IMG/VR virus record: IMGVR_UViG_2778261696_000009
Coordinates: 1-20,973 of that record
Length of the DNA stretch: 20,973 nt
DNA from: a virus
Taxonomy: Duplodnaviria; Heunggongvirae; Uroviricota; Caudoviricetes
Reading direction: 5' to 3' (one strand)
This document shows positions 1 through 17,874 of the stretch, piece by piece; the first letter of the stretch is position 1, and every line of letters starts with the position of its first letter. A program made the translations under genes and the position numbers. The notes under the pieces were generated by a model that did no database searches, was not told the origin of the DNA, and saw only the letters and a program-made list of their open reading frames with translations.

Positions 1-411
1 ATGCCTGCCCCCGTCGTCCTGATCCTTGCGGCCGGGCGTGGAGAGCGCTTTCTCGCCTCCGGGGGAAATACCCATAAGTGTATCGGCTGGCGTCAGTCCC
101 CGGAGGTTGCGCCTTATCGCTGGCCATTTGAAGAAAACGGGAGAACTTTCGACCTTGCGATTGAACCGCAGATTACGACTAATGATCTGCGTCTGATGTT
201 GAGGCTGGCTCTTGCCGGCGGAGGAATAACAATTGCCACTCAGGAAACTTTCAGGCCATATATTGAAAGCGGTAAGCTTGTATCGCTGCTTGATGACTTT
301 CTTCCACAATTTCCGGGCTTCTATCTGTATTTCCCACAGCGTCGCAATATTGCACCAAAGCTCCGCGCCCTGATTGACTACGTCAAAGAATGGCGGCAGC
401 AATTGGTTTAA
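1..411 (+). CDS. LysR-family transcriptional regulator, C-terminal fragment (5' end lies outside the window)
   Basis: ORF open from the window edge to a stop at 409-411. The C-terminal stretch (ITIATQETFRPYIESGKLVSLLDDFLPQFPGFYLYFPQRRNIAPKLRALIDYV) looks like the tail of a LysR substrate-binding domain. The first ~40 codons may be frame artefact. Likely host chromosome flanking the inserted DNA. Confidence 0.55.
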   Translation: MPAPVVLILAAGRGERFLASGGNTHKCIGWRQSPEVAPYRWPFEENGRTFDLAIEPQITTNDLRLMLRLALAGGGITIATQETFRPYIESGKLVSLLDDFLPQFPGFYLYFPQRRNIAPKLRALIDYVKEWRQQLV

Positions 412-536
412 ATAGCTGCACCTGCACTGCCTGATGTCAGAACAGTATTTTGATGAATTGCCAAGGTTACAATGGCACAAATGCGGCACAGGAGGAAACG
501 TGGTGTATTTAAATATGGGGTAACTCTTTGATTTTA

Positions 537-553
537 ATGGTGCGATAATAGGA
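537..553. repeat. Candidate attL core: left copy of a 17/18-nt direct repeat (ATGGTGC-GATAATAGGA) flanking the P4-like element
   Basis: ATGGTGCGATAATAGGA at 537-553 recurs as ATGGTGCCGATAATAGGA at 8653-8670, with a single 1-nt indel. One copy lies just outside the crr end and the other just outside the integrase end, as expected for att sites of an integrated element. Confidence 0.4.
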
Positions 554-612
554 ATGAATATTAAAAGTTAAGACATTGATTTATAATAGATTATTATATT
601 CAAAAAATATAA

Positions 613-633
613 CTATACACATATCTATACACA
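613..633. promoter_or_regulatory. Tandem CTATACACA(T) motifs, candidate integrase arm-type binding sites (left end)
   Basis: CTATACACAT at 613-622 and CTATACACA at 625-633. The same 10-mer occurs at 8532-8541 and inverted at 8488-8497, next to the integrase start. Four copies sit inside the element ends, between the candidate att core and crr or int. Confidence 0.35.
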
Positions 634-670
634 CTGCGCGCATCGCTTGTTTTTTACACAATTAAAAGTA

Positions 671-977
671 AGAAAAAAGTTTTTTTTCGAAAGAACTGTT
701 CACACTGTTCACCTTTCTTTTGTCTCCTTTTATTTCAGAGTGATAGGTGGTGAATAATGGGTGAAGGGTGAACATTCGATTCTTCACCTCCGGCATTCTG
801 CCGGTGTGACTCATACCGGTGATTAATCCCCCATACTGAAATCACACAGGGAGAAAAAAAAGTTTTTTTTGATTTGATTGTTCACACTGTTCACCTTTCG
901 TTTTTCTCTTTTAATTTCAGTGTGATAACGGGTGAATACACGGTGAAGGGTGAACAGTGGATTGTTCACCTTCGGGG
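671..977. repeat. crr-like cis replication region: two ~125-bp direct repeats (671-800 and 851-977), each with TGTTCACC-type iterons in both orientations
   Basis: Both units start with an A-run/T-run (AGAAAAAAGTTTTTTTT) and share near-identical sequence. Exact TGTTCACC octamers at 706-713, 888-895 and 963-970; reverse complement GGTGAACA at 767-774 and 949-956; near-iterons TGTTCACA at 697-704 and 879-886. Located directly downstream of the alpha gene, as recalled for P4 crr. Confidence 0.75.
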
Positions 978-986
978 AATTCAGGG

Positions 987-1013
987 ATAAAAAAAGACCG
1001 GCAGATGCCGGTC
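987..1013 (-). terminator. Rho-independent terminator downstream of alpha
   Basis: On the minus strand: GC-rich hairpin GACCGGC-(4-nt loop)-GCCGGTC at 996-1013, immediately followed by a run of 7 T (plus-strand A-run 989-995). It sits 17 nt after the alpha stop. Confidence 0.6.
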
Positions 1014-1029
1014 AGATGAGTCATGATGG

Positions 1030-3363
1030 TCAGGTTGTCGCAGGGTCGTCACATTTTGGCAGCCAGTCGCCGTAGCTTTCCTCTTTCAGCGTCAGGTTGG
1101 TCTGTATCCCCTGTTTGGTATGGCGCTTCTCGTAATTCAGTCCGTATTCCTTCAGCATCACCGGCAGCCCCAGCCCGAACATTTTCAGACTGAGTACATT
1201 CCGGTAGCCGTTTGCCTCCATGTAGGCCAGATAGGCGTGATAGAGGTATTTACGGTAATTGCGCGGGATGATACTGGCGTTCCCCATATACATGCCGCTG
1301 GTCTGCGGCAGGGTTTCCAGATAGCCGATAAAATCAAACGTCGGGTCGGCATCCCGTTTGATGTTCAGCGCCTCGTATGAGTTCTGCTGGGACTGAAGCA
1401 GTGACCGGGCGAGCATCGGGTCGCTGAACTTCTGCATCAGGTGACGCACGATGACCGCCAGCTCGCGGGTGATTTTGTCCTTAAGCTGCGGGTCGCGCTC
1501 CTGCGGGGCTATCTGTTCCGGGAAGTGAATAATCACCCGCCGGCGTGACACGCCGCCGCTGCGGTCGGTGAAGCGCATCGGGTTATTGTTCACGGCCAGA
1601 ATTACCGCCGGGATATGCGTGGAGTATGCATCCCGGTATTTCGGGTCAACGGACACCGCATCGCCGCCGGTGATGGCCTTGAGTCCGGCACCGTCGCCGC
1701 TCCATTTTTCCTGGTCCGGCAGGCGTATCAGTGAGAAGCCAGTTAACGCGGCACGTTCACGCGGGGATTCCAGCGTCTCGATGGTGGCCGACGTGGCGTT
1801 ATCCTCCCCGGCCAGCAGGGTGGCTATTTCGGCCATGATACTTTTGCCGCTGCCGCCGGGACCGGTCACCTCCAGAAAGAGCTGCCAGTCGTAGCGGTTT
1901 GCCAGCACCATAAACAGTGCGGCCAGAATCACGTCGCGTTTTTCCGCACGACCACCGGCGGCACGGTCAAGCCAGCGCCAGAACGCGGGGGCGTGGGTTT
2001 CCAGCGTTTCCCCTTCCACCGGCGGGGTGAAATCCACATCGCACAGGGTGCGCATCCAGTGTGACGGACTGTGCGGGTGGAACGTGCCGCTCTGCGTGTC
2101 GAGCACGCCGTTACGAAAGCCAATCAGGCGGCGGGAGGGGGCTTCCTGCTGCGGAATAATCAGCTTCAGGGTGTCCACCACGGAGGCCACCTTCCCGGAG
2201 GAGAACGGCGCGCGCAGACGCTGAAACAGCCCGGCCACATCCCGGGCAAAGTCCTGTGGCGGCAGCACCTTCCAGACACCATTTTCATAGCGGGACAGAA
2301 GCTGGCCGTTGGCATCGACCGCGAGCGCCTCGCCGTAATGCTCATAGATACGCATGGCCTTTTCGCTGGTACTCATGGCGGAAAACTCCGCTTCGCTCAT
2401 GGTGTCGAACGGGCTTTCAGCCGGTGGCCGGATGGCATCATAAATGGCCTTACGGGTGGCTTCCCCGCCGTACTGCGTGAAGGCATCATTCCAGTCACCG
2501 AAGACCGGCGGCAGGGCAACAACACCTTCACACGCATCTGCGGCTGCGGCGGCTTTTGTCTGGCCGTCACCGCTGAGGTCACGGTCAGCAGCAAGGACAA
2601 TCTGACAGGCCGGATGCTTCTGCCGGGCAAGGCTGGCCAGAGAAAGGAGGTTCACGGAAGAAAGCGCCACCATCACCGTTTCACCGGTCAGGTGATGCAC
2701 GGTAAGTGCGGTCGCGTATCCCTCCGCTATCCACAGACGTTTTCCGGCCTGATTCTGTCCTTCAAGGGTGTGACAGGTGCCCCTGACCTGTCCGCCTTTC
2801 AGGGTGCGCTTACGGCCGTCAGCGCTGATTAACTGAAGGTTAACCAGTTCGCCGCTGTCGTCATACAGTGGCACCACAAGGTCACCGGCGCACCAGCTCA
2901 CGCCACCGGCTCTGTGTGTGCCGGTCAGCATCCGGCATTCCCGGCCGGGAAAACCCTTGCGGGTCAGGTAGGCGTTACCGGTTCCGGGACGGGTTTTCGC
3001 CATCAGGGTTTGTGCCAGTGCGGCGGCGTTCTTCCGGGCAGCGTCTGTTTCAGCACCGGCGGCGGCCGTCACTGCCGGGTCAGCCGGGGGCAGACAGCCG
3101 GTCACGGCAGCCACCTTTGCGGCCGCGTCGGACGGGGAAACACCAAACACCTTTTCAACCAGTTTCAGGCCGTCACCGGCACCACACTGATTGCAGTACC
3201 AGGTGCCGCGCCCCTCCCTGTCATCAAAACGGAAGCGGTCACTCCCGCCACAGACCGGACAGGGCTGATGACGGTTTTTCAGCACCTGAATCCCCAGCGC
3301 CGGGAGAATACGCGGCCAGTGGCCGAGCGCATGGCTGACGGTGGCGGTTACGTTCATTTTCAT
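1030..3363 (-). CDS. alpha: P4-type alpha protein: bifunctional DNA primase / helicase / origin-binding replication protein
   Basis: 777-aa ORF, the length recalled for P4 alpha. N-terminal zinc-binding motif (CPVCGG...CNQCG), Walker A P-loop (GPGGSGKS) mid-protein, and a C-terminal domain upstream of the TGTTCACC iterons it would bind. AAGGAG RBS 8 nt upstream of the ATG. GC-rich. Confidence 0.9.
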   Translation of the reverse strand: MKMNVTATVSHALGHWPRILPALGIQVLKNRHQPCPVCGGSDRFRFDDREGRGTWYCNQCGAGDGLKLVEKVFGVSPSDAAAKVAAVTGCLPPADPAVTAAAGAETDAARKNAAALAQTLMAKTRPGTGNAYLTRKGFPGRECRMLTGTHRAGGVSWCAGDLVVPLYDDSGELVNLQLISADGRKRTLKGGQVRGTCHTLEGQNQAGKRLWIAEGYATALTVHHLTGETVMVALSSVNLLSLASLARQKHPACQIVLAADRDLSGDGQTKAAAAADACEGVVALPPVFGDWNDAFTQYGGEATRKAIYDAIRPPAESPFDTMSEAEFSAMSTSEKAMRIYEHYGEALAVDANGQLLSRYENGVWKVLPPQDFARDVAGLFQRLRAPFSSGKVASVVDTLKLIIPQQEAPSRRLIGFRNGVLDTQSGTFHPHSPSHWMRTLCDVDFTPPVEGETLETHAPAFWRWLDRAAGGRAEKRDVILAALFMVLANRYDWQLFLEVTGPGGSGKSIMAEIATLLAGEDNATSATIETLESPRERAALTGFSLIRLPDQEKWSGDGAGLKAITGGDAVSVDPKYRDAYSTHIPAVILAVNNNPMRFTDRSGGVSRRRVIIHFPEQIAPQERDPQLKDKITRELAVIVRHLMQKFSDPMLARSLLQSQQNSYEALNIKRDADPTFDFIGYLETLPQTSGMYMGNASIIPRNYRKYLYHAYLAYMEANGYRNVLSLKMFGLGLPVMLKEYGLNYEKRHTKQGIQTNLTLKEESYGDWLPKCDDPATT

Positions 3364-3377
3364 GGTGTTGTTCTCCT

Positions 3378-3626
3378 TCAGTGCAGTACCGGCGCTTTTA
3401 TGTGACGGGCACAGAGTTCATCCATCACAACCAGCCCGAGAAAGGACAGCGACGGCGCGGCCTTCAGGGGGCCGGATTCCATTAAATCTTCCAGCAGGGC
3501 ACAGGCTATCTGACGCCCTTTTTCCTCACCGTGCTGGCGCAGATAAAAGCCCTCCAGCTCAGCGGCGATGGCCGCCTCCAGTGACTCAAGGGTGAGATGC
3601 GGGTAGCGGTGCTGACGTTCGCACAC
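3378..3626 (-). CDS. Small protein in the epsilon position, directly upstream of and co-oriented with alpha; identity unverified
   Basis: Stop lies 14 nt upstream of the alpha ATG and overlaps the alpha RBS, suggesting co-transcription. The start is uncertain: GTG at 3626 has no obvious RBS and internal ATGs exist. Called by position only. Confidence 0.35.
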
Positions 3627-3716
3627 GGTCAGCCAGGCACAGGCGACAGCGCGACGGTAAAGGGCAGCGCGTAAGACGGGCGGTACCGCGATTCACTGAC
3701 GTCAGCCTCCGGCAGT

Positions 3717-3998
3717 ATGAAACGCCCGAAAAGAATGCTTGTTACCGGATATTGTTGTCGGAGATGTAAAGGCCTTGCACTGTCAAGAACATCGCGGCGT
3801 CTGTCTCAGGAAGTCACCGAGCGTTTTTATGTGTGCACGGATCCGGGCTGTGGTCTGGTGTTTAAAACGCTTCAGACCATCAACCGCTTCATTGTCCGCC
3901 CGGTCACGCCGGACGAACTGGCAGAAAGCCTGCATGAAAAACAGGAACTGCCGCCAGTACGCTTAAAAACACAATCATATTCGCTGCGTCTGGAATGA
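3717..3998 (+). CDS. delta: Ogr/Delta-family zinc-finger late-gene transcriptional activator (single-domain)
   Basis: Cys4 pattern CRRC...(x22)...CTDPGC, with SRTSR and RFIVRP segments that align by eye with phage P2 Ogr (C..C...ARTSR...KERY.QC....C...RYIVKP). 93 aa as called; an alternative start is the ATG at 3735. Confidence 0.8.
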   Translation: MKRPKRMLVTGYCCRRCKGLALSRTSRRLSQEVTERFYVCTDPGCGLVFKTLQTINRFIVRPVTPDELAESLHEKQELPPVRLKTQSYSLRLE

Positions 3999-4071
3999 GG
4001 GCTGCCGGTTAACACCGGCCGTCGCCGCACACCGTATTTTTATTCTTCAGCATGATGAGAAAGAGATAACG

Positions 4072-4644
4072 ATGGAAAGCACAGCCTTACAGCAGGCCTT
4101 TGACACCTGTCAGAATAACAAAGCAGCATGGCTGCAACGCAAAAATGAGCTGGCAGCGGCCGAACAGGAATATCTGCGGCTTCTGTCAGGAGAAGGCAGA
4201 AACGTCAGCCGCCTGGACGAATTACGCAATATTATCGAAGTCAGAAAATGGCAGGTGAATCAGGCCGCCGGTCGTTATATTCGTTCGCATGAAGCCGTTC
4301 AGCACATCAGCATCCGCGACCGGCTGAATGATTTTATGCAGCAGCACGGCACAGCACTGGCGGCGGCACTGGCACCGGAGCTGATGGGCTACAGTGAGCT
4401 GACGGCCATTGCCCGAAACTGTGCCATACAGCGTGCCACAGATGCCCTGCGTGAAGCCCTTCTGTCCTGGCTTGCGAAGGGGGAAAAAATTAATTATTCC
4501 GCACAGGATAGCGACATTTTAACGACCATCGGATTCAGGCCTGACGCGGCTTCGGTGGATGACAGCCGTGAAAAATTCACCCCTGCGCAGAACATGATTT
4601 TTTCGCGTAAAAGTGCGCAACTGGCATCACGTCAGTCTGTGTAA
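4072..4644 (+). CDS. psu: Psu (polarity suppression protein; capsid decoration / Rho antagonist) of P4-like satellites
   Basis: 190-aa ORF, the length recalled for P4 Psu. Directly downstream of the delta-like gene as in the P4 sid-delta-psu operon (no sid here). GC-rich, helical-looking sequence. Confidence 0.8.
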   Translation: MESTALQQAFDTCQNNKAAWLQRKNELAAAEQEYLRLLSGEGRNVSRLDELRNIIEVRKWQVNQAAGRYIRSHEAVQHISIRDRLNDFMQQHGTALAAALAPELMGYSELTAIARNCAIQRATDALREALLSWLAKGEKINYSAQDSDILTTIGFRPDAASVDDSREKFTPAQNMIFSRKSAQLASRQSV

Positions 4645-4680
4645 AATTCCCCGAAAATCCGCCCGTTTTTACTGAAAAAA

Positions 4681-4710
4681 GCCATGCATCGATAAGGTGC
4701 ATGGCTTTGC
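4681..4710 (+). terminator. Possible terminator hairpin after psu
   Basis: Inverted repeat GCCATGCA-(9-nt loop)-TGCATGGC at 4681-4705, followed by TTT. Modest intrinsic-terminator features. Confidence 0.35.
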
Positions 4711-4735
4711 ATGCGTTTCCCTGCCTCATTTTCTG

Positions 4736-4763
4736 CAGACCGCGCCATTCCCGGCGCGGTCTG
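4736..4763. other. Perfect 11-bp GC-rich inverted repeat (CAGACCGCGCC / GGCGCGGTCTG) with a 6-nt loop
   Basis: Seen directly at 4736-4746 and 4753-4763. Not followed by a T-run, so not a classical terminator. Lies in the psu-cos interval, so it could be a packaging- or protein-binding element. Confidence 0.4.
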
Positions 4764-4808
4764 AGCGTGTCAGTGCAACTGCATTAAAACCGCCCCGCAA
4801 AGCGGGCG

Positions 4809-4827
4809 GGCGTGGCGGGGGGAGCAT
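4809..4827. other. Degenerate cos-like site (P2/P4 cohesive-end-like)
   Basis: GGCGTGGCGGGGGGAGCAT matches the recalled P2/P4 cohesive end GGCGAGGCGGGGAAAGCAC at most positions. It sits where cos lies in P4 (after psu) and coincides with the sharp GC-rich to AT-rich transition. Confidence 0.4.
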
Positions 4828-4902
4828 TGCGCGCTAAGGCTGATATTATAATTTTCTTTAATTCTATTTGGTATTTTGGCTTTATTCGTCAGAAGGAACG
4901 TT

Positions 4903-4937
4903 TAGAAATAGACCACTACAATGGATTGTAGCGGTCT
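4903..4937 (-). terminator. Terminator-like hairpin downstream of the int-RT-partner gene string
   Basis: 12-bp stem AGACCACTACAA / TTGTAGCGGTCT (one mismatch) with loop TGGA at 4910-4937. On the minus strand it is followed by ATTTCTAAA and begins about 10 nt after the partner-gene stop. Confidence 0.45.
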
Positions 4938-4946
4938 GCATGATAT

Positions 4947-5687
4947 CTAGCGTTGCATTTCAGTTACTATGAAATTTTCTTCTGTAATAGAATTCATTAT
5001 CTCAAAGTACAATTCTTCAGGTTGAATAAACGCCAACTCTTTGCAAAGGTTGACAATGGTATCACTATAAGTGATACCCATCCGAGGATTGAAAAGCTCA
5101 AATCTCTTGATGTTTCTTTTGTTTTTTGAGTAAAAGTTTAAAGTGAAATATATTAGCACCTGTCTAAGATCGTAAACACTAAACTTCCTATCTCCTGATT
5201 TTATTTCCACAAGAACATTTGAATAATAAATATCGCCATATGAATTATTTATTACTCCGCATCCATCGAATTGTGGAGACACTTCAATTTGGTTTTCCAT
5301 TCCATATCGAGACAAAATGTTTCTTGCTATTTCCCTTATGGCATTGTACTCAACCATGCTTAAGGGTAGCTTGAAGTTAGAACCGTAAGCGAACCGCTGT
5401 AGATATTCTTTTGTTTTTTCAAAAACAACCTGAAAATCAGCATTATGGAAGATATCATGTGCTGAAAGAATATTTCTGTCTAACGAATCATTCTGTATTG
5501 CCCTATATAAATTAAATGCGCACTCATTAACAAAGACGTTATTTGACCTATTAGCGCAGTCATCTAGAGGAGGATAAACGTCCTCGATGAGACTGCCGTT
5601 AATGATGCGTATGAAATTATTAGCATTTGGAAGCAATTGATTCCAAAATGAAGTGAATTTTCGAGAAAACGTTAATTCAGATATCAT
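4947..5687 (-). CDS. Partner protein of the reverse transcriptase (246 aa, unknown family; possible nuclease-like effector)
   Basis: AT-rich ORF whose ATG overlaps the RT stop as ATGA (5684-5687). No family recognised by eye. Contains GDIYYSNVLVEIKSG, i.e. D-x9-E-x-K in a hydrophobic beta-like context, weakly reminiscent of a PD-(D/E)xK nuclease core. Confidence 0.7.
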   Translation of the reverse strand: MISELTFSRKFTSFWNQLLPNANNFIRIINGSLIEDVYPPLDDCANRSNNVFVNECAFNLYRAIQNDSLDRNILSAHDIFHNADFQVVFEKTKEYLQRFAYGSNFKLPLSMVEYNAIREIARNILSRYGMENQIEVSPQFDGCGVINNSYGDIYYSNVLVEIKSGDRKFSVYDLRQVLIYFTLNFYSKNKRNIKRFELFNPRMGITYSDTIVNLCKELAFIQPEELYFEIMNSITEENFIVTEMQR

Positions 5688-7312
5688 AGCGCATCCTCAA
5701 GATTTCTTGCGGTATGCCTTTTACTTGCCCAATCCCTGTAAATCACCTCTACAAAGTTGAATGTTTTCTTATTATGCTCTCTCCAGTGCCGTCCTTCATC
5801 ACCTAAGATGTAACTGGAAACGATCAATAGTCTTCTCTGCAACGGATGCATTGCAGAGAAATTTTTTTTGATATCAGAAAGCCATGCGTAAGAATTAATT
5901 TTTGCCATTGACTGTGTAACTATGTTCTTGACTAAGATGCTTTCTGGATTGTTATTGTATATTTCACTAAGGATTAGGGTGGATTTTTCTGAATTTTCTT
6001 TTGAGAGCATTCGGGCTACATAGGCTAAGTTGAGCTCAGTACTCAAAATATATGAATCTTGTTTAATTAGTGCAGTTATTTTATCAAGAATAATATCTTT
6101 GGTTTCTGTGCTTAATTTTTGCCAGTTGGAGTTAGCTACTTGAATTATAGTTGTAAATATTGGATATAACTCATGCAAGTTATTAAACATTACTTTGAAA
6201 GCACTACTTATTATTTCATCTGATGTTGCTGAGAATGCCTTTATCAAATGCTTGCTAAAAGATTGGTTAATTTTTGATTTTTGTAACTCACTACTCAGCA
6301 TAGCTAACAAGTCAAAATCTTTTAAAGATTCCTTTATCTCTTCATATTCCTCTATCGCATTTGCTGAGTAAGGATCGAATCTTATAGGAAGACTCATAAA
6401 TTTAGCCTTCATAGGAGATTCTTCATCTTCATCATTACCATGCAACTTAGCTTTAGTTACTGAAAGGAACTCTTCTTTAGTAACAATATTGGTTTTTTGT
6501 TTCTGTAAAGTTAGCCCTTCATTTTCCATCAGTTTTTTACTAAGCAAAGTTAAAATCTTATGAGCATCCTCTCTAGAGTTACAAAAAATAACAAAGTCGT
6601 CGACATAACGCTTATAGTTGATTCTATTCATAGACAATAATTTATCAATAGAATCTAGAGCTAGTTCTGCTAATATTCTAGAGGCAGGACATCCAACTGG
6701 TACTCCATATGATTTTGTTTCACTAAATGTCTGTAGTAATTTCTTGATTTTCCCAGAGTAATCTTTATTGGGGTCGACTCTATCTAACGCATTTTCTAAA
6801 CGGTGGTGATAAATACGCGGATAGAAATCTGCTATATCGCATGTAAGTACATACTTTATTTCATCGTTAGAACATTCAGAGATACTGTCTTCTTGATATT
6901 TTCTCCAAGAGATCTCTTTATCAAAAAGAGAACCATCAGCAAGGTTTGGTTTAAAGCGATATGAATAAACCTGCGTTTTAGTAGATCTATTCCTTTCAAT
7001 ATCATCAGCGATTTTTAAAACTAACCCAAGAAAAAAAGCATTCCAGAATGGATCAATTTGGGTCGCCCACCTGTAACCATAATAACCAATACTTGAAAAG
7101 CTATTAATTATGTTTGGTGGAATCTCGATCCTTTTATTTTCAAAGTCATTAAATGTTTGCATTAATGCAGTTTTTACTTTCTCCTTATCATCTTCAAATA
7201 ACCGACTTTCAAATGGGTAAGGGAAAATATCTGTATCGCCGTGCTTTATAATATTTTCCAATGCAAGCTCAAAGCAATTTTCTAGTTTACTACTATCAAA
7301 CTCGTTACTCAT
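5684..7312 (-). CDS. Reverse transcriptase (Abi/DRT-like defence-associated RT: N-terminal RT domain plus ~250-aa C-terminal helical domain)
   Basis: RT palm motifs in canonical order: LTCDIADFYPRI (motif A-like), GVPVGCPASRILAELAL (motif B-like), YKRYVDDFVIF (motif C, YxDD box). The C-terminal half has no RT motifs and contains GRHWREH (R-x4-H). The ATG overlaps the integrase stop (AATGAGTAA) with AAGGAG 7 nt upstream. AT-rich. Confidence 0.85.
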   Translation of the reverse strand: MSNEFDSSKLENCFELALENIIKHGDTDIFPYPFESRLFEDDKEKVKTALMQTFNDFENKRIEIPPNIINSFSSIGYYGYRWATQIDPFWNAFFLGLVLKIADDIERNRSTKTQVYSYRFKPNLADGSLFDKEISWRKYQEDSISECSNDEIKYVLTCDIADFYPRIYHHRLENALDRVDPNKDYSGKIKKLLQTFSETKSYGVPVGCPASRILAELALDSIDKLLSMNRINYKRYVDDFVIFCNSREDAHKILTLLSKKLMENEGLTLQKQKTNIVTKEEFLSVTKAKLHGNDEDEESPMKAKFMSLPIRFDPYSANAIEEYEEIKESLKDFDLLAMLSSELQKSKINQSFSKHLIKAFSATSDEIISSAFKVMFNNLHELYPIFTTIIQVANSNWQKLSTETKDIILDKITALIKQDSYILSTELNLAYVARMLSKENSEKSTLILSEIYNNNPESILVKNIVTQSMAKINSYAWLSDIKKNFSAMHPLQRRLLIVSSYILGDEGRHWREHNKKTFNFVEVIYRDWASKRHTARNLEDAL

Positions 7313-8489
7313 TCACATTCTCCTTAATAAAAATATAATCTGAATACCACTGCATCATATCACGGCGTTTATCAATATATTGAGCATGATTATACGTACC
7401 TCTAATATTATTCTTATCTATATGAGCAAGCTGTATTTCTATCCAAGCCGAATCATATCCTTTTTCGTGGAGGATAGTAGATAAGGAATGTCGAAATCCA
7501 TGACCAGTAAGTTTTCCACCATAACCAATACGCTTGATAACTTGGTTAATACTCGCCTCACTCATAGGCTTGTTCGGATCGTTCCGCCCCGGAAAAACAT
7601 AACTATACTTCCCTGTCATCATCTTGAGTTCATTTAGCAAATCTAACGCTTGAGTCGACAAAGGCACAAGGTGTGATCTGCGCATTTTCATCCTTTCAGC
7701 AGGAATTTCCCAAATAGCGTTATCTAAATCAAATTCTGACCATAATGCCGCACGTAATTCGATGGTTCTAACACCTGTAATCATGAGCAATTTCGTGGCA
7801 ATCAGGACAAGCCGACTTCCGGTATATCCGTTTAAGGCGCGAAGAAAATCAGGTATCTCATTAGCCTTTAAGAACGGGAAATGATTTGATTGGTGTACAT
7901 TGAGGGCGCTTGAAAGATCCGCAGCAGGGTTAAACTCAGCCCTTCCAGTAGCAATGGCATAGCGGAAAACTTCTGAGCATCGCTGCCGAACTTTGCGCAT
8001 TTTTTCTAATGCACCGCGCTTTTCGATTTTACGCAGCACATTAAGCAGTTCTAGCGGTTTAATCTCTCCCACTGGCCTTGTTCCCACATAAGGAAAAATG
8101 TCGTTCTTAAACGCTTCCATGATGTCTGATGCATATCCCGCCGACCATTTGGTAGACTTCTGTTGATGCCACTCTCTGGCTATCTTTTCGAAGGCGTTCT
8201 CTGACTCTGTTTGCAGAGCCAGCTTTTGCTCTTTTCGAACCTCACTAGGGTTCTTTCCTTCTGCCACAAGTTTTCGAGCTTCATCACGACGGGAACGAGC
8301 ATCAGCAAGAGTGATCGTTGGGTAAACACCAAGCGAGATCATTTTGGGTTTACCGGCATAGCGATAACGAAATCGCCAGCTTTTACTTCCATTTGGCTCT
8401 ACAAGTAAAGACAACCCTTGCCCATCCCCAAGTGTATAGGCTTTAGCTTCAGGTTTAGCACGGCGAATCTGCATATCATTTAGGGGCAT
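7305..8489 (-). CDS. int: P4-type tyrosine integrase (site-specific recombinase)
   Basis: 394 aa. N-terminal arm-binding-like region, then a tyrosine-recombinase catalytic region with R (LMITGVRTIELRA), HGFRHSLST (H-x-x-R) and a C-terminal RGTYNHAQY tyrosine region. Located at the element edge next to the candidate attR. Confidence 0.9.
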   Translation of the reverse strand: MPLNDMQIRRAKPEAKAYTLGDGQGLSLLVEPNGSKSWRFRYRYAGKPKMISLGVYPTITLADARSRRDEARKLVAEGKNPSEVRKEQKLALQTESENAFEKIAREWHQQKSTKWSAGYASDIMEAFKNDIFPYVGTRPVGEIKPLELLNVLRKIEKRGALEKMRKVRQRCSEVFRYAIATGRAEFNPAADLSSALNVHQSNHFPFLKANEIPDFLRALNGYTGSRLVLIATKLLMITGVRTIELRAALWSEFDLDNAIWEIPAERMKMRRSHLVPLSTQALDLLNELKMMTGKYSYVFPGRNDPNKPMSEASINQVIKRIGYGGKLTGHGFRHSLSTILHEKGYDSAWIEIQLAHIDKNNIRGTYNHAQYIDKRRDMMQWYSDYIFIKENVNE

Positions 8490-8541
8490 GTGTATAGAAT
8501 TCCAAAATCGAACAGGAACATATACATAATCCTATACACAT
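8488..8541. promoter_or_regulatory. Int-proximal CTATACACAT motifs (one inverted copy overlapping the int start, one direct copy), candidate arm-type sites and int promoter region
   Basis: ATGTGTATAG at 8488-8497 is the reverse complement of CTATACACAT; a direct copy is at 8532-8541 and a related ACATATACATA at 8519-8529. Same motif as at 613-633. Confidence 0.35.
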
Positions 8542-8652
8542 TTAGTACTGGATTCTACTGGAAAGTTATGGACTAATACGAACAGTAAAAACAAAAAATC
8601 TTTTATAAAACAGTGCGGTTATGGATAAATACGGATGTTTGAAGAAGTGGAG

Positions 8653-8670
8653 ATGGTGCCGATAATAGGA
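8653..8670. repeat. Candidate attR core: right copy of the 17/18-nt direct repeat
   Basis: ATGGTGCCGATAATAGGA at 8653-8670 versus ATGGTGCGATAATAGGA at 537-553. It lies ~165 bp beyond the int start. Confidence 0.4.
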
Positions 8671-8727
8671 GTAAAACACTCGATTAATCTCGTGTTAATG
8701 CCATCACCTACGACCATTACTAATTGA

Positions 8728-10092
8728 TTGAATCTTATAGAAAAATCATCATTTTCTATGCGTCACAATCAATTTTCACATTACAAACGCTCCGACACTT
8801 TAGCCGGAGATTTTATGAGATACAAGCCTAACCAATACTTAATCTGTGATTCTTACGGTAACTACTATTTAAGGATCACGCTGCCTGTGTATATGCAGCC
8901 CTTTTTTGAAGGAAAAAGGACGTTTGTCAGAAGTCTACACACAAGTAATCTTCGTGTTGCACGTAGAAAGCGTGATCAGATTGCAGATGAATACCATTGC
9001 TTACGGGAGAGTGTTGCCCCTGTAAACAGCACAATAGAAAACACGCTGGAACTGTTACGCAGTAAGGCTAAATACGCCAAAACAGCTACCAGAGTGCAAG
9101 ATACAGCGTCTTCGTGTCCGTCATTGCTTAAAATTCTTGAAATCTACCTGACAATTAACAGCACGAAGAAGAAGCCAGCCACTTTAGCTAAGGCAAGAAA
9201 AGCGGTAGAGATGTTTCTCTCCTACCGTAAAAAGCCTGATATTGCATTGCAAGATGTAAGCCGCACCACTGTTACAGGCTGGATTGAACACATGCAAAAA
9301 ACTCTTTCACAACAATCAATTGCAAATTATATCAGTCCAATGGCCCAGCTATGGGAATTAGCTTCATCACGTTACCACGATGCGCCAGAAAGGGCGCTCT
9401 CCCCCTGGCGAGGGCATAGGCTTGATGTGGCACAAAGTAGAGAGAGCTACGAGGCATTTTCTAACAAAGAGCTATTGCAGGTGTTGCAAGTATTTTCCGG
9501 TAATTCAGCAGAAAACAAAGAAATGACGGCTTTGTGTCTTATCGGTTTATATACAGGTATGCGGATCAATGAGATAGCAAGTCTCACAATAGACGATGTG
9601 AAAGAGATCGAAGGTGTGCTGTGTTTTGAAATCACACAGGGAAAGACGAAAGCTGCGGCACGTGTTGTGCCTGTGCATAACCTTATCACTCCGTTGGTGT
9701 TGTCGCTGCGTGAAAAGCCTCACAATGGCTTTTTGTTCTATCACGCCAGCATTACAGAACGTGCTGACGGTAAACGCTCTACGTGGCATACACAACGATT
9801 TACAAGAGCTAAACGAAAGGCTTTAGGGGAAAAGGGAACAGAAAGGAAAGTGTTTCATTCTCTGAGACACGGAGTAGCACAGCTTCTTGATCGAAATCAA
9901 ATTCCAGAAGACAGGATCGCCCTTCTCCTGGGCCATACACGCGGCAATACAGAAACATTCCGCACATATAGCAAAAATGCAGCTTCTCCAATAGAGCTTA
10001 AAAAATATATTGAGCTTTTACGCTACCCTGAAATAGAGAAAGGCTTATCAATCAATAAAAAATCAAATTTAAGGCGTAAAACAACGCTATAG
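8728..10092 (+). CDS. Second tyrosine recombinase / phage-type integrase (likely true start at ATG 8815)
   Basis: C-terminal catalytic signatures: YTGMRINEIASL (R), HSLRHGVAQLL (H-x-x-R), LLGHTRG and FRTYSK (Tyr). The in-frame ATG at 8815 has a GGAG RBS 5 nt upstream. Divergent from the P4-type int. Confidence 0.8.
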   Translation: MNLIEKSSFSMRHNQFSHYKRSDTLAGDFMRYKPNQYLICDSYGNYYLRITLPVYMQPFFEGKRTFVRSLHTSNLRVARRKRDQIADEYHCLRESVAPVNSTIENTLELLRSKAKYAKTATRVQDTASSCPSLLKILEIYLTINSTKKKPATLAKARKAVEMFLSYRKKPDIALQDVSRTTVTGWIEHMQKTLSQQSIANYISPMAQLWELASSRYHDAPERALSPWRGHRLDVAQSRESYEAFSNKELLQVLQVFSGNSAENKEMTALCLIGLYTGMRINEIASLTIDDVKEIEGVLCFEITQGKTKAAARVVPVHNLITPLVLSLREKPHNGFLFYHASITERADGKRSTWHTQRFTRAKRKALGEKGTERKVFHSLRHGVAQLLDRNQIPEDRIALLLGHTRGNTETFRTYSKNAASPIELKKYIELLRYPEIEKGLSINKKSNLRRKTTL

Positions 10093-10172
10093 ACGTAATA
10101 AAGAGGCTTCAATATAGACTGATGCCTCTTTTATGATTATCTCGTTACAGAGCGTTTCATAGGCGTTTAAGG

Positions 10173-10850
10173 CTATTGTTTAAATACTGGCGTTACAACG
10201 TCTTGCCCTGGGCTTTTTTGATTTTTCTGTTCTGTTGTATTTACCTGCATTTTAACCTGGCCTCCTACAGATTTATTTGGTGCTGTTTTTACCGCAATTG
10301 CGCTTGTAGTTGCTTTAGAGACAAGACGGATTTGCTCAAAATCAAGAGTAAACAATAGGCTTTCGCTTGCTTCTTCTTCGTAAGACATGCCAACTAACAC
10401 AACGTTGTCATAATTTTTTAACTCAGTGACAAGTAGGAAAGGTTGGCGACTGTCCATCAACTGATTTAGGTATTCAAGCATAAGCATACGTCGATTGCCG
10501 TTAATTCCAGCATTCTTAATCATATCAGGATTGAGCTTCAATACGGTTTCAGAGATACGCCCTTGTAATGTGAACTTGTTATTCCGTATTTGAACATGAT
10601 CACTAACTTCTGATCCTGATTCGACGGCATAGCTTGTAACGTCCGCATTTCTGCTAACTTTCGTCGATTCCACGCTATCAAATGATAATGCCTGGTAGTC
10701 ATTGTAAGCAGCATTTGCACCACTGCCGAGATTAGAGGTAATGATCGCAAAGCCGTTACCCCCTTTGGTTGTTCTACCGTTGCTATCGTTGCTTGTGCTG
10801 TTGATTTTCGCCTCAGTCGGGCGACCAATGGTTAACGGACCCATTGCCAT
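10173..10850 (-). CDS. Hypothetical protein (225 aa), last gene of the structural-looking operon
   Basis: ORF with AAGGA RBS upstream of the ATG at 10850; Ser/Thr/Asn/Gly-rich N-terminus. Follows the 613-aa gene on the same strand. Function not recognisable by eye. Confidence 0.5.
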   Translation of the reverse strand: MAMGPLTIGRPTEAKINSTSNDSNGRTTKGGNGFAIITSNLGSGANAAYNDYQALSFDSVESTKVSRNADVTSYAVESGSEVSDHVQIRNNKFTLQGRISETVLKLNPDMIKNAGINGNRRMLMLEYLNQLMDSRQPFLLVTELKNYDNVVLVGMSYEEEASESLLFTLDFEQIRLVSKATTSAIAVKTAPNKSVGGQVKMQVNTTEQKNQKSPGQDVVTPVFKQ

Positions 10851-10897
10851 AATTTGTAATCCTTATTTAAGGGGGCTAAACAGCCCCACAGTGATGA

Positions 10898-12739
10898 TTA
10901 ATAGGTTGACCCGCCTGACATAACACCCAGCGTTAATAGCTTGCTAAACTCAGCGGAGGATGCCTTTGATTTGAAGTCGATAAATTCGCTCAATCGTCCG
11001 GTGTCTGATTCGATAGTTAGCGGCACTTCTGCATTTACTTGTAATTCTGGATTGAAGTTAATAACAGGTGCAAAGGTGTAAGAAGGAGCCTTGAAAGCTT
11101 GTTGTGCTGCACTCTGTTTCAGATTTGCAATGTTTTGTCCTTCGAGACTGTATTGATTTACAGCCTGCGCCCCACCTACCGTTTCTTCTGGCATAAACCA
11201 GCTTTTAATAGTGTTAACCAGGGAATTGCTGTTATCTGGCTTAGTTGTTCCGGTGCCAGCGCCTTTATATTGATCAGGAGTGAGATTAGAAAGATTCTGC
11301 TTCATTCCTTCGTTAGATAGTGGCGGTGCATCCCCTAAATTCTTCTGAATAGCTTCCGTCTTCTCGTCGTTTTTCATCAGCCAGTTGATTGTTTTCATTA
11401 CGGCGTTAACCAATCCGCCGATAGCCTCGCCTAATTTGGTAAACATTGGCAGCATTGCAACCATGCTCTTTTTAAACTCTTCAATCACTTTCGGATCAAG
11501 AGATTTCATAAAGCCATCAACAAAGGCGATCCCTTGTGAGTCAGAAAGCCCACTAAGTGCATTATTCAGTTCACGGAATTTAATAACGCTTTCCTGTTGT
11601 GCCTGTGTTACCCAGCGCCCTGATTCTCGTTGTTCTCGTGCTGATTGTTCCACTTCTTTAGCGGAGCGTGTCCAGTATTTAGAGGTGAGCATCAAATCAT
11701 CAGCCAGATCTTCCAGACGACTACCGATTTGTGCATCTGAATAGCCTTTCTTCACCATTCCCTGAACTGCTTTACTAACCAGACCAGCCGGATTATCAGC
11801 AAAGTCTTTTAGATCCTTTTTAGTTAAGAATCCTTCATTCATTAAAGTATTGATGCCGCTATCGCCGCCCTTCCATTCACCTTTGCCTGTTTTTTTATCG
11901 ACTACATATTCAGCCTCATCATAGCTTTTGGTTGCACGCTCACGCACATCTTTCATCTGATCGAGATACTTACGTTTACCTTGATCCCCCATCATTGAAT
12001 CAACGCCGTTTTTGTAGGCCCATTGCTCAATATTGTTCATCTGGTTAACGTCTACACCGCCCAGCTTCGCACGGCTATACAATTCACCCAGCGTTTCAGC
12101 ATTCGCAAAGCTGTTAGTAACAAATTCAGAGGCTTTGCTCATAGCCATATACGTAGCGCCAGCGCCTAAGCCACCCAGCATAACAGCCGCAGCACCGCCG
12201 CCAATACTCCCGCTACCCTTAACAGGTGCATAGGCTTTAGCGTGAGCGTTACGATTGCCATTAATCTTACGTTGTTGCTGTTGTAGGCGTTTCATTTGGC
12301 TATTCATACGTGCCAGACTAATAGCTCCTCTTTCATATTGGAGGGCAATTTCTCTAGCCTGTGCAATAGCTTTATATTGTTCCGCTACAGAAAGGCGGTG
12401 CAATGCACTAATGCTTGATCCAACGTCTAACAGTTTTAAGTCTGCCTTCTCTTTGCGTGCTGCCAGGGCTTTTTGTTCTCTTGCAACTACACGTTGAGCG
12501 GCTAATTGTGCTTTAGCATTGGCTTTATCTGCCTGTGCTTGCTTTTTAGCAATATCGTCTACGTCTTTTTTTGCTTTAGAAGTTGATTGTTTATGTGTCT
12601 TAACACGCAATTCTATATCTTTCACCGCCGCCATTTGTTTACGAAGTTTTTCTACTTCTGCTTTTGCTTTCTCTAATGATGGTCGATCAACCTGGAAGGT
12701 GACAACGTTTGATAAGCGGCTGACGTTAAGTTCTAACAT
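10898..12739 (-). CDS. Large coiled-coil / glycine-rich protein (613 aa), tape-measure-like or scaffold-like
   Basis: N-terminal ~150 aa strongly charged Lys/Ala/Gln-rich heptad-like sequence, then a Gly-rich hydrophobic segment (GSGSIGGGAAAVMLGGLGAGATYMAMS). This architecture is typical of phage tape-measure or internal virion proteins; the assignment is tentative. Confidence 0.6.
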   Translation of the reverse strand: MLELNVSRLSNVVTFQVDRPSLEKAKAEVEKLRKQMAAVKDIELRVKTHKQSTSKAKKDVDDIAKKQAQADKANAKAQLAAQRVVAREQKALAARKEKADLKLLDVGSSISALHRLSVAEQYKAIAQAREIALQYERGAISLARMNSQMKRLQQQQRKINGNRNAHAKAYAPVKGSGSIGGGAAAVMLGGLGAGATYMAMSKASEFVTNSFANAETLGELYSRAKLGGVDVNQMNNIEQWAYKNGVDSMMGDQGKRKYLDQMKDVRERATKSYDEAEYVVDKKTGKGEWKGGDSGINTLMNEGFLTKKDLKDFADNPAGLVSKAVQGMVKKGYSDAQIGSRLEDLADDLMLTSKYWTRSAKEVEQSAREQRESGRWVTQAQQESVIKFRELNNALSGLSDSQGIAFVDGFMKSLDPKVIEEFKKSMVAMLPMFTKLGEAIGGLVNAVMKTINWLMKNDEKTEAIQKNLGDAPPLSNEGMKQNLSNLTPDQYKGAGTGTTKPDNSNSLVNTIKSWFMPEETVGGAQAVNQYSLEGQNIANLKQSAAQQAFKAPSYTFAPVINFNPELQVNAEVPLTIESDTGRLSEFIDFKSKASSAEFSKLLTLGVMSGGSTY

Positions 12740-12773
12740 GCTAATTGTTTCCCTGTATTATGATTGTTGTTTA

Positions 12774-12971
12774 TTATTGTTTTTTAGAGCAATAGTATTG
12801 AATTGCTTCGAAAGTGCTGCACCCAGTCTGAAAGACACGCTGGCGCACATTATTTGCATCAATTTCTAAAAGGCGGCAAAGCGCCGATGTGTTTATAACT
12901 GATTCCTCGCTAATAGCTGCCAGTTCTTTTACAGCCTTAAGAATAAAGGATTGTGAGTTTTCTGTATTCAT
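12774..12971 (-). CDS. Small hypothetical protein (65 aa)
   Basis: ORF between the capsid-like and 613-aa genes on the same strand; weak RBS; no recognisable motif. Confidence 0.35.
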   Translation of the reverse strand: MNTENSQSFILKAVKELAAISEESVINTSALCRLLEIDANNVRQRVFQTGCSTFEAIQYYCSKKQ

Positions 12972-13122
12972 TGGTTTTCTCTCACATATATATTTTTATT
13001 TGGGTTTGTAGACAGTAGAAAAACAAAAAGGGCAAAGAGATTCGTTACTGTATTTGCGCCTACAGGTTAGTTAATCCCTTTACCCTTATTGCCCCGATGG
13101 GGAATCGTCTATTAACGCTTTA

Positions 13123-14154
13123 TTACGCAGCAGATCCGAAGATGATAGCTTGCGGAATGTTGTTTACTGGCAGATAAGATGTCTCAGTAACCACAGATGG
13201 GAATTGGAATTCATCCTTGATTAGATATTGGTGATGCAACACGGCATCTTGACCTAACTCAGCATGACGCACACCAACGCCGCTATGAAGCTGGTAACAC
13301 TGTGCCGCTTTATCCATTACCGGAACAATTGCGAAACCGTTCTCTCCGATGTGAGCAACAATCTCAGGAAACATTGACACATCAATAACAGTGATCCCAC
13401 CAATCTGGAAAGAGTCATAGGCTGGGTTAGAATCAACCATACGGGTAAACAGGGCCGTAGCACTCGCATCGCCTGCATATTTCACCATGTCACTGATCAG
13501 CGGGTTAGATGACAAACCATCAGCAGCAGTGCCAGCAGCAAAGATAATTACACCAGTTCGCTTTGCAGCAAGACCAGACCCCAGCTTTTCACTCTGTAAG
13601 CGCACCGCTTTACGAATAGCAAGGAACGGGTTAACAGTAGTCGATGCAAAGTCGATAGCGGGTACCGTGGTTTTAGCCTGACCGTCGAGGAAGTCGAGAT
13701 CACCTTGTCCGGCATATTCAGATTCAACTTTCAGGCCCAGCAGCGCGGTAATCAGATCCACTTCAACACGGTTTGCGTGTGAACGGTAATGAGCCTCAGA
13801 GAAATCATTAACCGCTACCAGCATAGCATCAGAACGGTTTGGATATTGGCGGCTGTATTGTTCCAGGTCACGAGAAGTAACAGCGTTAATACTGCCGACG
13901 TGTTTCATCTGGAAAAGTTTGTTTGACCATTCCTGACGTTTAGAGGCGTTCCAGTCGCTTTGAGCGTAAGGCGAGGTTTCCCCAGCTACCTGCACAAACT
14001 GATCAATCAGGTCGGTAAGAAGAATGCTGTTTTCTGTATGATATTGCACATCGAACAGATCGAGATTAGTAATCAGGGTATTAAGTGCATTCTCATAAGC
14101 AAATGGAGTTACTACCGCAGTATTAACGCCAAAATATGTTGATAAATCATTCAT
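13123..14154 (-). CDS. Putative major capsid-like protein (343 aa); identity tentative
   Basis: Strong RBS (AAGGAAA, 8-nt spacer). Size and position immediately after a ~127-aa decoration-like gene mirror the lambda-type D-E (decoration, major capsid) arrangement. No direct sequence match could be verified by eye. Confidence 0.55.
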   Translation of the reverse strand: MNDLSTYFGVNTAVVTPFAYENALNTLITNLDLFDVQYHTENSILLTDLIDQFVQVAGETSPYAQSDWNASKRQEWSNKLFQMKHVGSINAVTSRDLEQYSRQYPNRSDAMLVAVNDFSEAHYRSHANRVEVDLITALLGLKVESEYAGQGDLDFLDGQAKTTVPAIDFASTTVNPFLAIRKAVRLQSEKLGSGLAAKRTGVIIFAAGTAADGLSSNPLISDMVKYAGDASATALFTRMVDSNPAYDSFQIGGITVIDVSMFPEIVAHIGENGFAIVPVMDKAAQCYQLHSGVGVRHAELGQDAVLHHQYLIKDEFQFPSVVTETSYLPVNNIPQAIIFGSAA

Positions 14155-14168
14155 TATTATTTTCCTTG

Positions 14169-14552
14169 TTAAGTCGTAGGGATCGCAAGTTCTTCATAAC
14201 CAGCAATTACAAAGCCGAGAGATTGCAGTTTTGCAATAACACTTGCCTTTTCCATGCTGTTAAATTCAATCCCATCTTCAGCCAGAATAACGAAAGTAGG
14301 ATGTGCAACCACTACGCTTTCCTGTCCTTCATAAGCCGGTTCAACTACTACGTGAGCAATATCAGATGCGGTTGTTGCTTTGGTGCCATCGGCTTTCAGC
14401 AAAGCCCCGACAATAAGATCGTCAGTGAGAGGTGAAGCCAGTTTGACGAGGCGATCTTGCAGCACTGGATCAGCAGCGTAAGCTACTACCTTACAGCGTG
14501 AACGGGAGTTATCCGCATTCACTGCTTTTAATTTTCCATATGGGTTAGCCAT
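14169..14552 (-). CDS. Putative head-decoration-like / small structural protein (127 aa); identity tentative
   Basis: RBS AAAGGAAAA embedded in the end of the upstream small gene (tight coupling). Ala/Val/Gly-rich beta-looking sequence; size and position are consistent with a capsid decoration protein. Confidence 0.5.
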   Translation of the reverse strand: MANPYGKLKAVNADNSRSRCKVVAYAADPVLQDRLVKLASPLTDDLIVGALLKADGTKATTASDIAHVVVEPAYEGQESVVVAHPTFVILAEDGIEFNSMEKASVIAKLQSLGFVIAGYEELAIPTT

Positions 14553-14556
14553 AAGA

Positions 14557-14754
14557 TTATTTTCCTTTCAGTTGTTTAATTTTAGATTTAAGGGCATCAG
14601 CAAGACTAACCGCATCAGCCGATTTAAATAATTGAGCAGTGGTAGAACGAAGACTTTCGGGAGTAACTCCCAACAGTGCGGCAACCTTAATGAGGTTTTC
14701 ATCACTAACAATCATCGTTTCCCCGTCTTTGCTGATAATCATTTCTTGTTTCAT
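14557..14754 (-). CDS. Small protein (66 aa from ATG 14754; the track calls a TTG start at 14796), first gene of the structural-looking operon
   Basis: ATG at 14754 is preceded by AGGAAC. Its stop overlaps the RBS of the next gene. Confidence 0.45.
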   Translation of the reverse strand: MKQEMIISKDGETMIVSDENLIKVAALLGVTPESLRSTTAQLFKSADAVSLADALKSKIKQLKGK

Positions 14755-15738
14755 AAATAATGTTCCTGTTAGTGCCAGACAAATAAAAAGCCCCAATGCC
14801 GTAAGAGGTTAATTCTGACCAGCAAAGGGGCTTTAACGTGCGGGCAATTACATAATTGATAAGTTAAACTATAAGAGGATTAAACATATCAGCAAATACA
14901 CTTTTTAAATATACTTGATGATATGCTTAAAGGGTGAATAGATACTCCTGAAAACATGCTCTTAGGAAAACATGCGGAATCAATCAGGAATATCTATTCG
15001 GGGCGCGGTGGCCAACCGCTATCTTTCATGGTGTGGATGCACCAGTCAGATTTTAAGGAATCACTATTCCAATCTACTCACAGATTAAATTTTTAATAAT
15101 GATTAACTACACCAACAGTAATCTACCGTTTCAGAAAATCGTTTTTACAACCAAAGCTTATAGATCCGCATTCTATAAAACCCGTTTTGCTATCAATATT
15201 TCCAAAGTTTATTGCACCATTCTTAGCTAAACTCTCTCTGCTTGCGGCTAACGCTATGCAGATGATTGTTTTTGACAACAACTTAATAGATTATTCTGTT
15301 ACTAACTTCTGTCATTAAATAATAGTTTAATGATGTTAGTAAATAGTTATAAAATATAACTATCAGTGTAAGGCTCTTTAATGTTTTCTGACAAAATAAG
15401 GAGCTTTAGGATAAGCATAGATGAAAAATAATAGCGGGAAGGGCAAGGAGATAACACCTACCCGCTTTTATCAAAATTAAGCACAATGCCTAACAACATT
15501 CATCAACACAACGTAGAAACAATCAACAATCAAAGAGGGAGTTATGATTATTCTAAAACTTCTTGAGAGATGGAAGGTAATATTTGTTAGAGGTTAATGC
15601 CACTCAACCTTTGAGGCTATCACCTTCCATATGCAGGGATTTATGACAGTAGAAGGATTAACACCAACTAAAATCTTTTTATCTACCCCTAAAATTATTA
15701 TATAACAAAATCATTATAAATGCAAATAATTTTCATTA

Positions 15739-16038
15739 TCATTTAGAGAAAATAGCACTTTTTGCTAAATCATCTACTAATTGCTGAATCTCTTCACTTG
15801 CAACCTTTAACGTGGTGGCGATGTCTGTGATGATTTGATTACACTGTTTTGCATCGTCCTCTGATACGCTCACCAGAGAGATAAAATCGTCAAGGCTTAC
15901 ATTCACCTTCATTAAGCTAATAACGCATTGAGAGAGCGTGTAATCGCATAAATCTGAATAGGCTTGATTTATTCTTGTTTGTAGTGAGATAGTCAGATCT
16001 AAAAGTTGTTCCATTGCATTGCTAATATCTTCTTCCAT
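15739..16038 (-). CDS. Small hypothetical acidic protein (99 aa)
   Basis: ATG overlaps the stop of the upstream gene (TAATG); AAGGAG RBS 9 nt upstream. Last gene of a minus-strand string of small ORFs. Confidence 0.5.
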   Translation of the reverse strand: MEEDISNAMEQLLDLTISLQTRINQAYSDLCDYTLSQCVISLMKVNVSLDDFISLVSVSEDDAKQCNQIITDIATTLKVASEEIQQLVDDLAKSAIFSK

Positions 16039-16240
16039 TATGCGTATTCTCCTTGTAATGCATCATTAATCATATTCAATACGATGTTAAAAGGTGTCTT
16101 GAGCGTCAGCACTTCATCACGGTAACGCTCTAATGCTTCGTAGTCTTCTGTTTCTTTTGCCAGCCGAATTAACTCTGCATAGTTTTTTGCATCAGACAGG
16201 ATCATCTGAAATAATTGTGTTTCTTGAATATAGCCAATCA
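16038..16240 (-). CDS. Small hypothetical protein (67 aa from ATG 16240; the track extends to 16283)
   Basis: ATG at 16240 has an AGGA-containing RBS (AAAAAAGGAAAAATAATG); the upstream ATG at 16283 has none. Stop overlaps the next start. Confidence 0.5.
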
Positions 16241-16298
16241 TTATTTTTCCTTTTTTGAATATTTTCATTGGGCGCTTATACATACACCCATCATTTTA

Positions 16299-17049: not shown

Positions 17050-17058
17050 TTATTCTCC

Positions 17059-17851: not shown

Positions 17852-17874
17852 TTGGTTTTCTCCTTCTCCTGTTA

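Follow-up and report, generated by a model that had tools for sequence, protein, structure and literature searches.

The locus described here raises the question of why base composition changes so abruptly in the middle of a P4-like satellite, and what the change records of the history of the element. The stretch of DNA that was analysed, referred to here as the window, is 20,973 nucleotides long (IMG/VR record IMGVR_UViG_2778261696_000009). The original prediction, made from the sequence, placed a compositional boundary between a GC-rich P4 core and an AT-rich module of integrase (int) plus cargo, and took that module to have been exchanged as a unit from a low-GC source.

The window is a piece of the Escherichia coli chromosome – it is 100% identical to strain EC12 and to many other strains over 8.4 kb – and is flanked by a yagP-like LysR pseudogene/paoD on one side and by thrW-proA on the other. 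A P4-like satellite occupies positions 538–8672 and is integrated at thrW (Table 1); P4 attaches at leuX. Two segments of the satellite align with P4: window 674–3685 (crr, alpha, orf106) is 97.8% identical at the DNA level to P4 nt 4291–7291, and window 3684–4837 (the 3’ part of delta, psu, cos) is 98.5% identical to P4 from nt 10500 through the right end to nt 29 at the left end. The cos shared with P2 and P4 was recognised by alignment over the joined P4 ends, and a Pfam search of the window found alpha, DUF5375, Ogr/Delta, Psu and tyrosine integrase domains.

Between these two segments, 3.2 kb has been deleted relative to P4. P4 nt 7291 is fused to nt 10500 at window 3684–3685, with the loss of orf151, epsilon, cI, orf88, ori, sid and the 5’ part of delta; the P4 CI RNA region also falls within the deleted segment. 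Intact relatives of the satellite are 3,208 bp longer, and both forms circulate in E. coli (intact: L085, L102). The features that place the element among the P4-like satellites – alpha, psu, cos, and a tyrosine integrase and att at the end of the element – are all present. Core genes for helper subversion and regulation (sid, a complete delta, epsilon/ash and alpA/orf88) are missing, so the satellite is a degraded member of the P4-like family. Judging from its gene content it is probably defective, while still retaining alpha, psu, cos, the DRT8 cassette and int.

Several further observations concern the satellite and its setting. Insertion sequences split the same satellite in some strains, with IS3 lying within the cassette/int region, while int is hit by IS1 and the core by ISEc12. 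A tRNA scan found no tRNA in the window; the att there is just a 19-nt fragment of tRNA-Thr, recognised by comparison with a related element (L003). An Rfam search at gathering thresholds gave zero matches anywhere in the window and tied no non-coding RNA to the cassette. Alpha sequences 98–99% identical to that of the window are found on short contigs in metagenome-assembled genomes labelled Clostridiales, Ferruginibacter, ‘bacterium’ and Ruminococcus (L005, L006, L007, L041), which are almost certainly mis-binned enterobacterial contigs.

Beyond attL a second island (window 8654–20300, GC 0.35–0.46) lies in tandem at the same tRNA-Thr site, and a complete thrW is found ~13 kb further on in strain EC12. 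This island has its own integrase (8728–10092, DUF6538) and a DNA invertase (19697–20254). Others of its proteins match a Dit-like tail/baseplate protein and a tape-measure-like protein, with weak matches to a major head protein and a replication initiator. The island could be a further satellite or what is left of a phage.

Table 1. Features of the P4-like satellite in the window
Feature	Position	Strand	Basis and remarks
attR, left end of satellite	538–555		Imperfect copy (TGGTGCGATAATAGGAAT) of the tRNA-Thr 3’ end; direct repeat of 8654–8672; homology to elements with the same int type starts at 527–538
crr-like region	673–975		Two 121-nt direct repeats (673–793 and 855–975), 81% identical to each other; aligns to P4 crr 4291–4590
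alpha primase-helicase, 777 aa, GC 0.611	1030–3363	-	Pfam Zn_Ribbon_Prim, Toprim_3, D5_N, Pox_D5; 99% aa identity to P4 alpha
orf106 / DUF5375	3378–3692	-	Pfam DUF5375 E=2e-47; RefSeq annotation in L002
Deletion junction	3684–3685		Two P4 alignment segments abut (P4 nt 7291 / nt 10500)
delta remnant, C-terminal 105 of 166 aa	3681–3998	+	Pfam Ogr_Delta; tblastn 97% to P4 delta residues 62–166; RefSeq pseudogene
psu, 190 aa, GC 0.532	4072–4644	+	Pfam Psu E=1.3e-88; 99% identity to P4 Psu
cos region, conserved, GC-rich	4740–4838		Alignment to both P4 ends; last stretch common to P4 and the relatives examined
Cohesive-end equivalent	4809–4827		GGCGTGGCGGGGGGAGCAT; 15 of 19 nt as in P4
Maximum-likelihood GC changepoint	4843		GC 0.588 left, 0.366 right
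Predicted DRT8-associated PD-(D/E)XK nuclease, 246 aa, GC 0.339	4947–5687	-	PADLOC RTasPDDEXK E=5.5e-69
Predicted DRT8 reverse transcriptase, 542 aa, GC 0.333	5684–7312	-	PADLOC Drt8 E=4.9e-166, full length; Pfam RVT_1
Tyrosine integrase, 394 aa, GC 0.431, tRNA-Thr (thrW)-specific	7305–8489	-	Pfam Arm-DNA-bind_3, Phage_int_M, Phage_integrase; tRNA-Thr adjoins homologous integrases
attL, right end and junction with second island	8654–8672	-	3’-terminal 19 nt of tRNA-Thr (TGGTGCCGATAATAGGAGT on the + strand); aligns to the annotated tRNA-Thr 3’ end in L003; homology to all relatives stops at 8672

Sliding-window GC and codon usage both gave a step. GC is 0.588 between 1030 and 4842 and 0.366 between 4843 and 8489, and the changepoint was placed at 4843 under each of three surrounding intervals, with log-likelihood ratios (LLR) of 187, 120 and 39 (the maximum in 200 shuffles was 7.8). 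In 50-bp windows, GC drops from 0.64 (4800–4849) to 0.28 (4850–4899). The difference between the kilobases on either side of 4842/4843 is 0.19, compared to a largest adjacent-kilobase difference of 0.143 in ~35 kb of flanking host DNA. Third-position GC is 0.71 in alpha and 0.56 in psu, 0.38 in int, and 0.33 and 0.29 in the PD-(D/E)XK gene and the reverse transcriptase (RT) gene of the cargo; the mean of 12 flanking host genes is 0.575. The LLR of 187, the 50-bp windows and the flank comparison thus bear out the GC-rich core and the abrupt boundary of the original prediction. Its further statement, that the sequence is strongly AT-rich through the integrase, held for the cargo only. A second changepoint at 7443 (LLR 17.4) separates the cargo (4839–7442, GC 0.332) from int and its upstream sequence (7443–8700, GC 0.430), which is moderately AT-rich. 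At the opposite edge of the core there is an equal-sized step at ~1000–1260 (changepoint 998, GC 0.431 left and 0.588 right), where the 3’ end of alpha meets the AT-rich crr/attR region.

The switch had been said to coincide with a cos-like site, and with the site located by alignment to the P4 ends, the coincidence is exact. The changepoint is 16 bp beyond the cohesive-end equivalent, 5–11 bp beyond the end of homology (4832–4838) and 202 bp past the psu stop codon. Similarity to P4 ends at window 4837–4838 (P4 nt 29 corresponds to window 4837), and homology to nine other elements, from at least six genera, stops at 4832–4838 where cos-side similarity is detectable. A GC-rich hairpin, CCGCCCGCTTTGCGGGGCGG, is found at 4790–4809, right before the cohesive end, followed by TTTTAATGCA on the minus strand, and is conserved in P4; it could be a terminator for transcription coming from the int-cargo side, or part of cos recognition. 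A promoter and terminator scan of 4600–5000 found no promoter-like site and a single terminator-like hairpin, at cos, with no excess over shuffled sequence.

The same step was looked for in other P4-like elements. With alpha as bait, 80 loci were collected from a set of Enterobacterales with one genome per species. Sixty elements with an integrase upstream of alpha were compared, counting P4, two E. coli relatives and the window. The step is present in all 60, P4 included, with a size of 0.125–0.268, and is therefore an ordinary property of the P4-like family that calls for no special event. Cargo GC is 0.29–0.41 (median 0.332, standard deviation 0.021), whatever the cassette or the host. Core GC is 0.44–0.61 (median 0.543, with an alpha median of 0.597) and int GC is 0.43–0.52 (median 0.464). 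In 56 of the 60 elements int is intermediate between cargo and core, and int is a compositional class of its own. The genes of P4 itself follow this series – psu 0.527, gop 0.373, beta 0.369, cII 0.337 and int 0.462. In most of the loci in which psu was detected, the changepoint is ~200 bp past the psu stop codon. Core GC and host-flank GC are correlated (r = 0.48–0.53), in contrast to the GC of cargo (r = 0.17) and of int (r = 0.10). There is next to no chance that the step is ordinary regional heterogeneity of the E. coli genome or an assembly chimera, which has nothing behind it beyond the general compositional patchiness of bacterial genomes: the LLR far exceeds that of any shuffle, the step is larger than any in the host flank, the identical arrangement is present in 105 complete E. 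coli genomes, and the step recurs in every related element, so that chance and assembly artefact are ruled out as its cause.

The cargo, from 4839 to ~7340 with a GC of 0.33, is predicted to be a DRT8 defence system consisting of a reverse transcriptase and a PD-(D/E)XK nuclease. Full-length PADLOC matches were obtained for both DRT8 models, so that a recognised anti-phage system appears to occupy the position. DRT8 is characterised by a PD-(D/E)XK domain (PMC12596737); both components match here and nothing about them is distinctive, the system in the window being known from its sequence. The three genes are co-directional and overlapping, the end of int sharing 8 nt with the start of the RT gene (7305–7312) and the end of the RT gene 4 nt with the start of the nuclease gene (5684–5687), which suggests a single operon. 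A co-directional cargo ORF is present in 42 of 59 related elements; it starts no more than 20 nt from the int stop in 18 of the 42 and overlaps it in 12. From this arrangement, cargo is likely to be co-transcribed with int often across P4-like elements.

Comparison of core, cargo and integrase showed that the element is a mosaic. The identities of alpha and of int are uncorrelated (Mantel r = 0.047, with 190 of 2000 permutations at or above the observed value; 59 elements, 1,711 pairs), as the original prediction of a mosaic satellite implied. In pairs of elements with an alpha identity of 95% or more, the integrases are often just 35–39% identical. The window and P4 are such a pair, with alpha 99% identical and integrase proteins 39% identical, despite a core that is 98% identical in DNA.

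Cargo and integrase are also mostly separable from each other. Shared cargo was found in just 5 of the 158 element pairs with integrases at least 85% identical, and at least eight further cargos accompany the int type of the window. The same core (98–99%) is found at the same site in E. coli RM11911 and PRO_A-1429, whose integrases are 95% and 87–89% identical to that of the window, respectively; the first carries an HNH endonuclease and an AAA ATPase, and the second an ORC/CDC6-type ATPase. Unrelated cargos on cores that are 98–99% identical (L003, L004) are what is seen in a hotspot. Conversely, DRT8 is found beside integrases just 40–41% identical to that of the window, in Citrobacter portucalensis (L016) and in viral or metagenomic contigs (L088, L098–L101, L104). 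In a set of 5,426 complete E. coli genomes, 105 have an int allele at least 99% identical to that of the window and 105 have the DRT8 cassette, which looks like one clonal lineage of the element. Integrases 95–99% identical are found in 6 others and those 80–90% identical in 410. As DRT8 is present in 107 genomes in total, most of these other int carriers cannot have it, and the one genome of the 95–99% class that was examined (RM11911) has unrelated cargo.

There are also cases in which the two have stayed together. DRT8 (RT 91–97% identical) occurs with the int type of the window (93%) on cores with alpha 84%, 68% and 61% identical (L087, L096, L097, respectively). In L087, identity to the window rises at cos from 0.72–0.79 to 0.87–0.93 and remains at 0.88 through int. 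The recurrence of the DRT8-int pair on divergent cores means that cargo and integrase are not fully independent and are sometimes co-inherited.

The breakpoint on the integrase side is within the gene. Homology to elements with other cargo resumes at 7335–7373, within the 3’ end of int, so that the breakpoint falls in the last 10–22 codons (7305–~7373), whose sequence varies with the cargo. In protein alignments the body of the integrase is conserved, while elements that carry different cargos also have different C-terminal tails, in both sequence and length. The variable tail begins after a conserved WY[S/A] motif, itself after the catalytic RGTYNHA motif. Since the tail differs with the cargo, cassette exchange rewrites the end of int.

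These results bear directly on the proposal that a low-GC organism or element was the source of int and cargo, with attP, imported as one block in a single event that replaced a P4 segment. The whole of a contiguous P4 segment, nt 29–4291 (gop-beta-cII-int-attP), has been replaced in the window, and both the DRT8-int pairs on divergent cores and the identity jump of L087, kept up from cos through int, are in keeping with transfer of the two together. Against this, cargo and int differ in GC (0.332 and 0.430), with a changepoint between them. Unrelated cargos accompany integrases 87–95% identical to that of the window, the breakpoint being inside the 3’ end of int, and DRT8 adjoins integrases of only 40–41% identity. 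The step is also found in all 60 elements including P4, and no low-GC donor was found. A single import of this kind is improbable. Exchange of int and hotspot as a unit, as originally proposed, fits the three divergent-core elements; it does not fit the GC difference, the rarity of shared cargo or the breakpoint in int. The best description is of three modules (core, cargo, and int-attP) with partial linkage of physical neighbours, rather than of a single int-plus-cargo unit.

The boundary at 4838–4843 is thus very probably the cos-proximal edge of a P4-like defence hotspot, in an element whose three modules assort on different timescales. The positions of the breakpoints suggest that cassettes would be replaced by recombination between co-resident P4-like elements, with homology on one flank in the conserved cos/psu side and on the other in the body of int. 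A DNA end made by terminase at cos may assist, as proposed by Rousset et al. (2022), for whom that end is one substrate and homologous recombination provides the second crossover (PMC9122126). A packageable recombinant must keep cos, which would pin the breakpoint to a few bases beyond it and make the step abrupt; the catalytic core of int must also be kept, which would give the looser breakpoint in the 3’ tail of the gene.

Much of this is established for P4-like satellites. A hotspot between psu and int, adjacent to cos, has been published (PMC9122126), and the locus described here is like it in its cos-adjacent position, its recognised anti-phage system and the differing cargos on near-identical cores (L003, L004, window). 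The integrase tree differs from those of other core genes, indicating integrase exchange (Moura de Sousa & Rocha 2021; PMC8628076); the present set does not differ in this respect and is an independent replication on a small scale. Rapid swapping of defence loci has been described for elements whose cores are identical (Moura de Sousa et al. 2026; PMC13586616). Text searches of these three papers for base-composition terms gave no match, the term ‘AT-rich’ having been checked in PMC13586616 only. Compared to P4 (NC_001609), the satellite has the same gene order, cos position and GC step, and differs in the 3.2-kb deletion, in having DRT8 in place of gop-beta-cII, in its 394-aa integrase and in its tRNA-Thr (thrW) site.

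The origin of the low GC was approached through relatives of the cargo. DRT8 GC is 0.31–0.34 in relatives with RT 76–100% identical and 0.27–0.29 in a 63%-identical fragment. Scans of viral and metagenome collections with the RT detected DRT8 in P4-like contexts only. All of the DRT8 relatives with enough context, those from genome collections included, are directly downstream of a P4-type integrase, and psu, sid or alpha adjoin where the contig reaches. In a tblastn search of plasmids for a possible donor, the RT had no close match; RTs 25–31% identical were found in high-GC Paraburkholderia, Rhizobium and Sphingobium, together with weak RT-domain matches in Enterococcus, and these matches are uninformative on origin. 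The low-GC source of the original prediction gained no support from this comparison – low-GC cargo is shared by all 60 elements, no donor was found, and the relatives of DRT8 with enough context are in P4-like hotspots. Low GC that is common to unrelated cassettes and shows no amelioration cannot be taken to point to one recent import. It seems to characterise the circulating pool of defence cassettes as a whole rather than any one donor.

An explanation that fares better than a single import, while still rather unlikely, is that the step is kept by selection. Cassettes, and to a lesser extent int, would stay AT-rich for silencing of the H-NS type, which would keep potentially toxic immunity genes and the co-transcribed integrase quiet, while the core drifts with its host. 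The narrow, host-independent GC of unrelated cassettes beside a core that tracks the host is what such selection would produce, as is the lack of amelioration of DRT8 from 100% down to 63% RT identity. The abstract of a 2026 bioRxiv preprint reports binding and silencing of AT-rich immunity loci by H-NS in Escherichia. The same pattern would be given, without any compositional selection, by fast turnover from a common AT-rich pool, and AT-richness is general among horizontally moving accessory genes.

A more specific form of this idea is more doubtful still: that the AT-richness of the cassettes is actively maintained as a regulatory feature, with H-NS-type silencing spread over the int-cargo operon and the cos edge insulating the core. 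The numbers behind it are the GC of 0.33 with a standard deviation of 0.02 across ~59 mostly unrelated cassettes, and the unchanged composition of DRT8 over as much as 37% protein divergence. If it is true, defence and integrase expression would be derepressed jointly, on infection or on induction of the helper.

For the P4-like satellites as a group, the biology behind the GC step that defines the cos-proximal edge of the hotspot is already known. The understanding of these elements is unchanged, and the finding is mainly a sanity check. The additions are small – the step is universal in the 60 elements, cargo GC is independent of the host, the breakpoint on the integrase side is in the last 10–22 codons of the gene, and int has a GC class of its own. 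In practical terms, a strong GC step is enough to recognise ‘P4 core / cos / defence cassette’ in an enterobacterial island, and its changepoint gives the position of cos and of the hotspot edge to ~10 bp.
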